DNA of 34,669 bases from a virus (Duplodnaviria > Heunggongvirae > Uroviricota > Caudoviricetes), in IMG/VR virus record IMGVR_UViG_2872158770_000004, one strand, 5' to 3'. Both the position numbers and the translations under genes were made by a program. Positions 25,730-28,540 of the stretch are shown piece by piece. Numbering within the stretch: the first letter of the stretch is position 1; every line of letters begins with the position of its first letter. The notes beneath the pieces are model-generated. The model was not told the origin of the DNA and made no database searches. It saw only the letters and a program-made list of their open reading frames with translations.

Positions 25730-25954
25730 GTCAGAGTCTTTCAGTCTGCGATGATGGGAAATCCCGGAGTGACTGAAAGACGTTTAAGTTATGAATGATC
25801 GCCTTTTTTTGCAAAATTGCTGTGCAGAAATACTAACCTTCGGGCGTGCGATCATTCATAAGCACTCTGCTTTTATTCCGATTAACTGTGGGTGGTTTGT
25901 TGGATAGAGTGTGAGGTGTACTGGCAATAGCGGACACTACCATTTGTTCTTTTT

Positions 25955-26668
25955 TTAAGCAGCCATCTGATGATATTTTTCCCTGAAGGCTGCCGGGGAG
26001 ATATTCCCCAGACGAGAGTGACGACGCTGACGATTGTAGAAAATCTCAATGTATTCCCGTATTACTGAGATGGCTTCATCCCGGTTATTAAAACGATAGT
26101 GGCTCAGGCTCTCATTTTTCAGCGTTCCCCAGAAGCTTTCCATCGGAGCGTTGTCGTAACAGTTACCTTTACGCGACATTGATGTTTTCAGACCAAACTG
26201 CTCCTGTATGACCCGGTAATCGTATGCGCAGTACTGTGAACCTCGATCAGAGTGGTGGATTAGCCCGGCAGGTGGGCGCTGGCTCCTGAGCGCCATAAAC
26301 AGGGCTTTACCTGTCAGCTCTTTTGTCATGCGCTCTCCCATGGCGTAGCCGACAATTTCGCACGTATAAACATCTTTGATGCCAGCGAGGTACAACCATC
26401 CCTCCTGTGTGGCAACATACGTCAGGTCCGCCACCCAGACCTGATTTGGTGCTGTAGGAGCGAACGTCTGGTTCAGCAGATTTGGCGCAACTGGCAGATT
26501 GTGGTTCGAGTTCGTAGTCGCTCTGAACTTGCGTTTCTGCTTACAGCGTAGCCTTAGCTCCTTACGAAGACGTGCCAGTCGGTCACGACCAACGATGATG
26601 CCATTCTCTGCCAGCTCCGTCTGGAGCCGCCGGGTTCCATATGTTTCGCGAGTGCGGATATGTGCCAC
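25955..26668 (-). pseudogene. IS600 orfB, interrupted by IS911
   Basis: 237-aa C-terminal portion only; the first 35 codons lie beyond the IS911 insertion (27978 onward). Confidence 0.9.
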
Positions 26669-26800
26669 CTTAATCTCCAGTTTTAGCCGCTCATCACTTT
26701 GTTTTCTGTCTGAGGGTTCATGCTGTACTGAAGTGGCACACTGAATTTGGCCACCTGAACAGAGGTGATATGCTCACCTCAGAACAACACAGGTGCTCCA

Positions 26801-27103
26801 ATGAAAAAAAGAAATTTTAGCGCAGAGTTTAAACGCGAATCCGCTCAACTGGTTGTTGACCAGAAATACACGGTGGCAGATGCCGCCAAAGCTATGGATG
26901 TTGGCCTTTCCACAATGACAAGATGGGTCAAACAACTGCGTGATGAGCGTCAGGGCAAAACACCAAAAGCCTCTCCGATAACACCAGAACAAATCGAAAT
27001 ACGTAAGCTGAGGAAAAAGCTACAACGCATTGAAATGGAGAATGAAATATTAAAAAAGGCTACCGCGCTCTTGATGTCAGACTCCCTGAACAGTTCTCGA
27101 TAA
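26801..27103 (+). CDS. IS911 OrfA
   Basis: [50 protein letters not shown]... Confidence 0.9.
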
Positions 27104-27129
27104 TCGGGAAACTCAGAGCGCATTATCCT

Positions 27130-27969
27130 GTGGTCACACTCTGCCATGTGTTCGGGGTTCATCGCAGCAGCTACAGATACTGGAAAAACCGTCCTGAAAA
27201 ACCAGACGGCAGACGGGCTGTATTACGCAGTCAGGTACTTGAGCTACATGGCATCAGCCACGGTTCGGCCGGAGCAAGAAGCATCGCCACAATGGCAACC
27301 CGGAGAGGCTACCAGATGGGACGCTGGCTTGCTGGCAGGCTCATGAAAGAGCTGGGGCTGGTCAGCTGTCAGCAGCCGACTCACCGGTATAAACGTGGTG
27401 GTCATGAACATGTTGCTATCCCTAACTACCTTGAAAGGCAGTTCGCCGTGACCGAGCCAAATCAGGTGTGGTGCGGTGATGTGACCTATATCTGGACGGG
27501 TAAGCGCTGGGCGTACCTCGCCGTTGTTCTCGACCTGTTCGCAAGAAAACCAGTGGGCTGGGCCATGTCGTTCTCGCCGGACAGCAGGCTCACCATGAAA
27601 GCGCTGGAAATGGCATGGGAAACCCGTGGTAAGCCCGGCGGGGTGATGTTCCACAGCGATCAGGGCAGTCATTATACGAGCAGGCAGTTCCGGCAGTTAT
27701 TGTGGCGATACCAGATCAGACAGAGTATGAGCCGGCGCGGAAACTGCTGGGATAACAGCCCAATGGAACGCTTCTTCAGGAGTCTGAAGAACGAATGGAT
27801 GCCGGTGGTGGGTTACGTAAGCTTCAGCGAGGCAGCTCACGCCATAACGGACTATATCGTTGGATATTACAGCGCACTAAGACCGCACGAATATAACGGT
27901 GGGTTACCCCCAAACGAATCGGAAAATCGATACTGGAAAAACTCTAACTCGGTGGCCAGTTTTTGTTGA
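27130..27969 (+). CDS. IS911 OrfB (DDE transposase, -1 frame relative to OrfA)
   Basis: 279-aa track ORF. Confidence 0.9.
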
Positions 27970-28060
27970 CCACTTCATACCCAGTTGTAATAACCGCTCC
28001 TGGATACACCAAATACCTGACACATCGCTTCAATGGGAAATTGTTGTCGCCATTGTTCGA

Positions 28061-28363
28061 TTAACGCGTATTTTTCAGCGACTCCTGTGCAAAATACGCT
28101 GTTGCTTTTTTTAATATATCTCGCTCAAGGCGAGCTTCATTTAACGCCTTACGCAGTTGCAGAATTTCAGATTCCAGTTCAGCCACCGTGCGGGAACCAG
28201 GAGTACCGAGCCCTTTTCTGGCGGCGGTAACCCATTGTCCTAAAGTGCCTTCAGGAAGAGATAATCGGGAAGCGCCTTCACTGATCGAAAGTTGATTTTC
28301 AGGAACCGTTCTGACAGCTTCGGCTTTGAACTCTTTAGAGTAACGTTGGGTTTTTCTGCTCAT
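28061..28363 (-). CDS. IS600 OrfA (copy E)
   Basis: 100-aa ORF. Confidence 0.92.
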   Translation of the reverse strand: MSRKTQRYSKEFKAEAVRTVPENQLSISEGASRLSLPEGTLGQWVTAARKGLGTPGSRTVAELESEILQLRKALNEARLERDILKKATAYFAQESLKNTR

Positions 28364-28540
28364 TATTAGCTCCTTCTGATGCCATTCTATTTTAGGAAGG
28401 AGTGTCCGTTAAACTCAGGCTACCTCAGTGCTTTCCTTACTGTATATATCGTTTCGCCCGCTTTTGCGTTTTTTTCTTTTCAAATCCCTTTCATTTCTCA
28501 GTGTAAAACTACGCCATCCGTTATTTGCGGAGGTGAGGCT

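Follow-up and report, generated by a model that had tools for sequence, protein, structure and literature searches.

What occupies the interval that separates the late tRNAs from the holin gene in the prophage of virus record IMGVR_UViG_2872158770_000004, the place at which Shiga toxin (Stx) phages carry their toxin operon, and how did it come to be there? The stretch of DNA analysed, hereafter the window, is 34,669 nucleotides long, and all positions refer to it unless stated otherwise. An earlier note on this DNA had described the interval as an insertion sequence (IS) within another one, IS911 inside a copy of IS600 called copy E, and had held that IS600 came by simple insertion, that IS911 followed, and that no cargo gene lies at the site. 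We found that the interval is a gene-free spacer interrupted by an IS600 which is itself split by IS911, that the same site exists in relatives empty, with IS600 only or with the nested structure, and that the composite has, on at least one occasion, moved as a unit; the order that we favour is IS600 first and IS911 later, in place.

The outer element, 2,516 bp at 25912-28427, was delimited by direct reading and by script. The transposase of copy E lies on the minus strand and the inner element on the plus strand, and each is flanked by its own 3-bp duplication. The features of the interval are as follows:

25730-25911, plus strand: left part of the original spacer, 182 nt, with two hairpins; contiguous with 28431 onward in IS-free relatives
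25909-25911, no strand: GTG target-site duplication, left copy
25912-26728, minus strand: arm of IS600 copy E with the 3' 817 bp, the catalytic part of orfB with the rve domains (Pfam rve on a 237-aa open reading frame (ORF) at 25955-26668)
26726-26728, no strand: TAC duplication made by IS911, left copy, which is IS600 sequence
26729-27977, plus strand: IS911, 1,249 bp, with orfA at 26801-27103, A6G at 27052-27058 and an OrfAB of 389 aa ending at 27969
27978-27980, no strand: TAC duplication, right copy
27981-28427, minus strand: arm of IS600 copy E with the 5' 447 bp, containing orfA at 28061-28363, the A7 run at 28106-28112 and the first ~128 codons of OrfAB
28428-28430, no strand: GTG target-site duplication, right copy
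28431-28540, plus strand: right part of the original spacer, 110 nt

Copy E starts with TGAGGTGTACTGGC at its left end and stops with GGCTACCTCA at its right end, whose reverse complement is TGAGGTAGCCTGAG; the terminal inverted repeats are imperfect and start with TGAGG. IS911 extends from TGAAGTGGCACAC to GACCACTTCA, with termini of the type TGAAGTGG, and the inner junction (39 nt) reads GAGGGTTCATGCTGTACTGAAGTGGCACACTGAATTTGG. When IS911 and one TAC are taken out (2,516 - 1,249 - 3), a healed IS600 of 1,264 bp is obtained, which shows 2-4 mismatches (99.7-99.8% identity) with the five other 1,264-bp IS600 copies of the window (492-1755, 5957-7220, 8763-10026, 17767-19030 and 31384-32647). 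RefSeq labels sequence matching the outer element 'IS3-like element IS600 family transposase' and sequence matching the inner one 'IS3-like element IS911 family transposase' (for example in NZ_CP026804.1). The coordinates, the names and the GTG and TAC duplications given in the earlier note were thus exact, as judged by reading, by script and by the RefSeq labels.

IS911 entered at base 447/448 of IS600 (transposase orientation), about 125 nt past the A7 slippery run. As a result of this split, the OrfAB of copy E is cut after ~128 codons, upstream of the rve (DDE) domain, which sits in the other arm, and a full IS600 OrfAB, in which orfA and orfB are joined by a -1 frameshift, is not found in it. 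An intact OrfA (HTH_Tnp_1, 100 aa) and both IS600 ends are kept. Copy E is IS600 by its sequence and is not autonomous, having no transposase of its own while retaining the requirements in cis. The inner IS911, with an orfA of 100 aa, an A6G slippery site and an open fused OrfAB of 389 aa, is apparently intact, judging from its open frames and intact ends.

Is copy E a simple insertion? A healed query was made from 24900-25911 joined to 28431-29300, with a single GTG, and searched in 5,426 complete Escherichia coli genomes. It was matched in one piece, with 100% coverage and 97.7-97.8% identity, in E. coli RMDEC364, VL46, CFSAN029787 and RMDEC332. Alignment revealed the empty site, ...GGATAGAGTGCTTTCC..., with one GTG in FDAARGOS_943, which is nearly identical to the window across the spacer, and in loci L019 (UYIT01000003.1), L027 and L028; a single GTG was counted in L001, L002, L019, L027 and L028. 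Non-contiguous flanks in IS-free relatives had been named beforehand as the finding that would speak against a simple insertion; the flanks are contiguous, with a single GTG, in the IS-free E. coli relatives, and the earlier claim of a simple insertion with duplication of GTG stands. Since relatives have the empty single-GTG site and at least five other independent assemblies show the occupied site in identical form, this arrangement is not due to chance. FDAARGOS_943 was also considered as an intermediate with IS600 only and rejected, its IS600 being located in the endolysin gene, a separate event.

We then turn to the order of the two insertions. The window is Shigella sonnei, because its segment 19955-32667 matches S. 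sonnei 53G (HE616528.1), a lineage II strain (PMC5447701), at 99.984% over 12.7 kb, nested IS included. Look-ups of the holin and endolysin proteins of the window gave nine loci with the site occupied. Six of them are nested (the window, 53G, CP032523.1, CP044151.1, CP061367.1 and CP179990.1); the other three, all complete genomes (CP180280.1, CP044191.1 and CP022672.1), have IS600 only, with site, orientation and GTG duplication identical to those of the nested loci. Three states of the site were therefore found, empty, IS600 only and nested, and they are listed here with the alleles at window position 29134 and at position 1230 of IS600:

E. coli outgroups: site empty; G at 29134; IS600 position 1230 not applicable
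CP180280.1 (L025): IS600 only; G at 29134; C at 1230
CP044191.1 and CP022672.1 (L045 and L048): IS600 only; T at 29134; C at 1230
Six nested genomes: nested; T at 29134; T at 1230

C1230 is also found in the five other IS600 copies of the window and in a composite carried by a plasmid (see below), T1230 being private to the nested lineage, and the IS911 sequence is invariant across the six nested copies. The alleles form a ladder without homoplasy, from CP180280.1 to the pair CP044191.1 and CP022672.1 and then to the nested genomes, and the IS600-only genomes are thus basal and paraphyletic. From this ladder we infer that IS600 came first and that IS911 inserted into it later, in place; this order is favoured with reasonable confidence and is not proven. 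The earlier proposal that IS911 was second, entering orfB with duplication of TAC, is borne out to that extent by the three IS600-only genomes, which share the identical site and are basal by linked single-nucleotide polymorphisms (SNPs). A285, present in the window and in the Shigella flexneri composite described next, was tried as a marker of common ancestry and rejected: within the nested set it occurs only in the window, 53G and CP179990.1, the other three having G.

A composite of the same length, 2,516 bp, is present on the pINV plasmid of S. flexneri 89-141 (NZ_CP026804.1), adjoining ospI. Its inner junctions are identical to those of S. sonnei and its outer duplication is TAT/TAT, and the healed, composite-free plasmid site is intact in at least 124 pINV plasmids. 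Because the plasmid composite has its own TAT duplication and the site is empty in these plasmids, these data show that the composite moved as a unit at least once, by simple insertion on the plasmid. Nine of the 16 positions at which it differs from the S. sonnei composite fall within composite positions 1063-1099 (window 26974-27010), that is, in 37 bp of IS911 orfA and mostly with a 3-nt spacing; altogether, 10 differences lie inside the IS911 part. The clustered differences have the look of a short tract converted from a divergent allele of IS911, and together with the combination of A285 and C1230 they point to gene conversion among IS copies as having blurred the history.

We found no other match to the inner junction in 72,556 plasmids, besides NZ_CP026804.1, or in the 5,426 complete E. 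coli genomes. It was not found in the GTDB representative genomes either, which evidently do not include S. sonnei, and a look-up of IS911 OrfA gave ordinary IS911 sites only and no other copy of the composite. Three candidates for further copies or markers were rejected. The 237-aa truncated OrfB is called wherever IS600 is interrupted nearby and does not mark nesting; the matches on ~95-kb E. coli plasmids are the reverse nesting, IS600 inside IS911, in four rearranged pieces; and in the matches H72 and H75 the IS copies are merely adjacent.

Several points count against the history and the effect that we propose. Few sites inform the order of events, namely a single SNP in the flank and another in IS600, in a set of nine genomes. 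The plasmid and S. sonnei composites differ at 16 of 2,516 positions, and the plasmid composite has C1230 with A285, a combination that matches no node of the S. sonnei ladder. Neither qut nor a late promoter was located, the late promoter having been missed by the consensus scan.

The alternative that survives best, which we nevertheless regard as unlikely, is that the composite was formed elsewhere and arrived already nested, either by transposition of the 2,516-bp unit, GTG being then its own duplication, or by conversion of a resident IS600 via its arms, which would have brought in T1230 along with IS911. If the unit arrived as such, the genomes with IS600 only would have lost IS911 by conversion from an intact IS600. 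The plasmid copy with its own TAT duplication testifies to real unit mobility, and the 16 differences in 2,516 positions exceed what point mutation would probably produce, given the uniformity of the S. sonnei loci, which hints that the composite predates the nested clade. Co-conversion would agree with the perfect linkage of T1230 to the presence of IS911, and conversion with the right arm of CP180280.1, which has 2 differences in 447 positions from the nested copies where the flanks have about one per 2 kb. However, arrival of the unit followed by loss requires two independent conversions (one in CP180280.1, the other in CP044191.1 and CP022672.1) or homoplasy at 29134. No donor is known, the inner junction being nowhere else in the scanned plasmids, E. 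coli genomes and GTDB representatives, and the only other copy of the composite has C1230, not T1230.

It is very improbable that IS911 hit the same IS600 nucleotide in the same orientation twice independently, at a hotspot, which would make the plasmid copy uninformative and dispense with unit transposition. IS600 and IS911 do often hit each other, as in the reverse nesting on the ~95-kb E. coli plasmids, and insertions of other IS into IS600 are known at distances of up to about 120 bp from the IS911 entry point; but these other interruptions are at 327, 433, 443 and 506 (transposase orientation) and none is at 447/448. Moreover, the plasmid copy has a clean outer 3-bp duplication at a site that is empty in the pINV plasmids mentioned above, and a hotspot would still require IS600 to have inserted there first and IS911 to have struck it in the identical way afterwards. 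Finally, a mis-join of repeated IS copies during assembly is hardly credible: IS-rich Shigella genomes are hard to assemble and the draft locus L047 has Ns at the site, but the identical 2,516-bp structure with both duplications is present in six independent assemblies, including 53G, and exact 3-bp duplications at both levels are not typical of mis-joins.

Returning to insertion of IS600 followed by IS911 in place, the sequence of events would have been the following. IS600 (1,264 bp, minus strand) would have entered the spacer 182 nt past tRNA-Gly, leaving 110 nt to the holin start, and duplicated GTG, and IS911 (1,249 bp, plus strand) would later have entered the same IS600, duplicating TAC. 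This second event would have truncated the IS600 OrfAB at ~128 codons, before the DDE domain, and spared OrfA, the IS600 ends and IS911 itself. The many other IS600 copies would then presumably supply transposase to copy E in trans. The slot equivalent to that of stxAB would never have held a gene in this prophage lineage, and the only plausible effect of the insertions would be to move the lysis genes 2.5 kb away from the Q-like gene, the late promoter and the tRNAs. Any polar effect on late transcription would probably be neutral: with integrase and terminase both truncated, the prophage cannot excise or package. A consensus scan predicted no outward plus-strand promoter at the holin-proximal end.

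A broader idea is that the interval from the Q-like gene to the lysis genes is hit by IS above chance, that Shigella and enteroinvasive E. coli (EIEC) are under selection for uncoupling or inactivating lysis cassettes, and that the composite is a trans-mobilised, non-autonomous unit that moved between a S. sonnei chromosome and a S. flexneri virulence plasmid. The IS hits in the interval include IS600 at the S. sonnei site, IS600 in the endolysin gene of FDAARGOS_943, IS911 at the equivalent of window position 25290 in L019 and, in a sister prophage of CP061367.1, IS911 with loss of three tRNAs; we consider this idea, taken as a whole, improbable.

What did the insertions interrupt? The healed spacer from tRNA-Gly to the holin gene measures 182 + 110 = 292 nt, in agreement with the figure of about 300 bp given earlier for the interval once both IS are removed. 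Its longest ORF, of 59 aa, is implausible, and RefSeq annotates no coding sequence in the spacer of relatives. Two stable hairpins are present in its left part (25736-25781 and 25790-25861; -22.5 and -25.6 kcal/mol, z about -3.4), and Rfam found four tRNAs only over the spacer region. StxA2, StxB2 and the two downstream ORFs of phage 933W gave no significant tblastn match across the whole window. The absence of a cargo gene at the site, as first read from the sequence, is thus upheld: the spacer has no plausible ORF and no RNA beyond the tRNAs, and the window has no stx. In this prophage lineage the slot consists of 292 nt of bare spacer, so that neither a toxin nor any other cargo was lost here.

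The tRNA-to-holin interval is mosaic among relatives. FDAARGOS_944 (locus L003), the closest by flank identity (99.7%), has an unrelated spacer of ~680 nt between tRNA-Gly and the holin gene (L003 3831-4509) with no annotated gene, a mosaic replacement exactly at the cargo slot. Other IS copies were seen nearby. In L019, from another Shigella-type genome, an IS911 (2516-3764) lies between the Q-like gene and the tRNAs, at the equivalent of window position ~25290, with the IS600 site empty. A rearrangement has put unrelated sequence to the left of this IS911, and a second, truncated IS911 follows directly on the holin gene. CP061367.1 carries, besides its nested locus, a sister prophage (4137386-4145883) in which IS911 without IS600, in reverse orientation, separates the Q-like gene from the holin gene, at the equivalent of L003 3591-3964; the deletion associated with it takes tRNA-Arg, tRNA-Thr, tRNA-Gly and part of the spacer.

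The genes and signals on both sides of the interval are as follows:

24675-25229, plus strand: gene in the Q position, 184 aa, DUF1133 (Pfam DUF1133, 356.7 bits)
25301-25331, plus strand: terminator-like hairpin with a U-run, tR'-like, downstream of the Q-like gene (fold -11.2 kcal/mol, z -4.0)
25380-25409, plus strand: promoter-like site upstream of the tRNAs, TTTGCA-18-TATTAT, aligned with 933W pT
25419-25729, plus strand: four tRNAs, CAT, Arg-TCT, Thr-TGT and Gly-TCC (ARAGORN; Rfam tRNA, 56-70 bits)
28541-28756, plus strand: phage-21-type class II holin, 71 aa (Pfam Phage_holin_2_1, 121.8 bits), 79% identical to 933W S
28756-29253, plus strand: endolysin, 165 aa (Pfam Phage_lysozyme)
29238-29717, plus strand: Rz-type spanin (Pfam Phage_lysis)

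The protein in the Q position also matches Phage_antitermQ (PF06530) weakly, at 29.4 bits for a cut-off of 26, and its antiterminator function is putative. The tRNA with anticodon CAT is called Met by ARAGORN and tRNA-Ile in the RefSeq annotation of relatives. Within the terminator-like stem, a G>T change at 25323, private to the window strain, turns CCCGC/GCGGG into CCGC/GCGG; G is found in all eight other S. sonnei-type loci and in the E. coli outgroups. In the EIEC-like loci L001 and L002, the tRNA at 3756-3826 has anticodon TAC and a 1-nt deletion and is called tRNA-Val (71-72 nt) instead of tRNA-Gly-TCC; this fourth tRNA may be degenerate or retargeted.

As indicated by Pfam scans, the window is essentially one decayed lambdoid prophage. 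It begins with an integrase ORF (1748-2503) truncated by IS600 A, followed by IS2 and recombination genes, among them an Exonuc_VIII ORF between two IS600 copies; then come an IS630-type element, a cI-like repressor gene, replication genes, IS600 D and IS1 copies; then DUF1367, YbcO, the Q-like gene, the tRNAs, the nested IS, holin, endolysin and Rz; and finally a DUF1441 gene and the gene for the terminase large subunit, which IS600 F cuts down to 121 aa (31026-31391). No head or tail genes were found between the truncated terminase gene and the window end, and the prophage thus does not have the intact integrase, terminase and structural genes of a functional lambdoid prophage.

By themselves, IS600 and IS911 account for 8,836 of the 34,669 nucleotides. 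The window also contains three IS1 copies (19185-19688, 22701-23204 and 33239-33742; insB ORFs 99.8% identical), IS2 (orfB at 3219-4124) and the IS630-type element (12603-13634), which with the six IS600 copies and IS911 gives ~12 IS copies in 34.7 kb. A Shigella chromosome has 229-348 IS copies, and IS600 and IS911 are among the five commonly expanded elements (Hawkey et al., PMC7373316); the IS density of the window is normal for the organism. Matching 3-bp flanks were found for IS600 A (CAA), C (TAC), D (CTA) and E (GTG). IS600 B (5957-7220), flanked by TAT/GTT, and IS600 F (31384-32647), flanked by GAA/GCC, have no such match, which suggests IS600-mediated deletions or rearrangements; in CP180280.1 a different set of genes (tail) adjoins copy F on its right. 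An inverted duplication around IS600 F was considered and rejected as an 8-nt coincidence.

The locus is an ordinary IS-in-IS insertion in a dead prophage, and its structure was already present in S. sonnei 53G and other deposited genomes. Both IS600 and IS911 are well known, as are the expansion of the two in Shigella and the nesting of one IS in another (PMC7373316); our literature searches found no description of this locus. The empty, IS600-only and nested states might be used as an easy marker of lineages in S. sonnei, and the composite illustrates how a disabled IS600 can keep its mobility as part of a 2.5-kb unit.

How does the locus compare with known systems? Copy E, once healed, is 99.7-99.8% identical to elements named IS600 in RefSeq. 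It resembles IS600 in its healed length of 1,264 bp, TGAGG termini, 3-bp duplication, 100-aa orfA, rve-containing orfB and A7 run, and departs from it by the split at 447/448 and, with the rest of the nested lineage, by T1230. The inner element has the TGAAGTGG termini, 3-bp duplication, 100-aa OrfA, A6G signal, 389-aa OrfAB and RefSeq name of IS911. The reference IS911 is 1,250 bp long, one base more than the copy here, and 1,249 bp is also the length in the other Shigella copies looked at (in NZ_CP026804.1 and UYIT01000003.1). The reverse nesting near toxB on ~95-kb E. coli plasmids, seen in E. coli 2014C-3057 (plasmid NZ_CP027386.1) and conserved in about 50 similar plasmids of many strains, involves the same two IS, with segments 99.6% identical; there, in contrast, IS600 is intact and IS911 split, and the junctions and the replicon differ from those of our composite.

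The closest parallel for the slot itself is the stx (moron) slot of 933W, annotated in the order Q, pR'/qut, terminators, pT, ileZ-argN-argO, terminator, stxA2, stxB2, esterase, one ORF, S and R. Both loci share the order antiterminator gene (a putative one in the window), terminator(s), tRNA promoter, tRNAs, slot, holin and endolysin, and they are homologous on both sides of the slot: window 25374-25654 aligns locally with 933W locus 1076-1375, which contains the annotated pT and tRNAs, with 75% identity across 301 nt, and the two holins share 79% of their residues. The alignment to this Stx-phage late region thus bore out the slot position and the flanking homology that the earlier note had proposed. 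The designation of the upstream gene as Q needs a qualification: it belongs to another family (DUF1133), only just passing the Phage_antitermQ cut-off, and its product is unrelated to the Q protein of 933W. Between the endolysins identity is only 32%, and the window has four tRNAs (Ile2, Arg, Thr, Gly) where 933W has three (Ile2, Arg, Arg). The window prophage, unlike an Stx-converting phage, has no stxA/stxB between the late tRNAs and the holin gene. On the evidence of these alignments, the analogy is sound for the slot, with a putative antiterminator of a different family upstream: in 933W the slot holds 4.46 kb (stxA2B2, esterase and one ORF), whereas in the window it is a 292-nt gene-free spacer.

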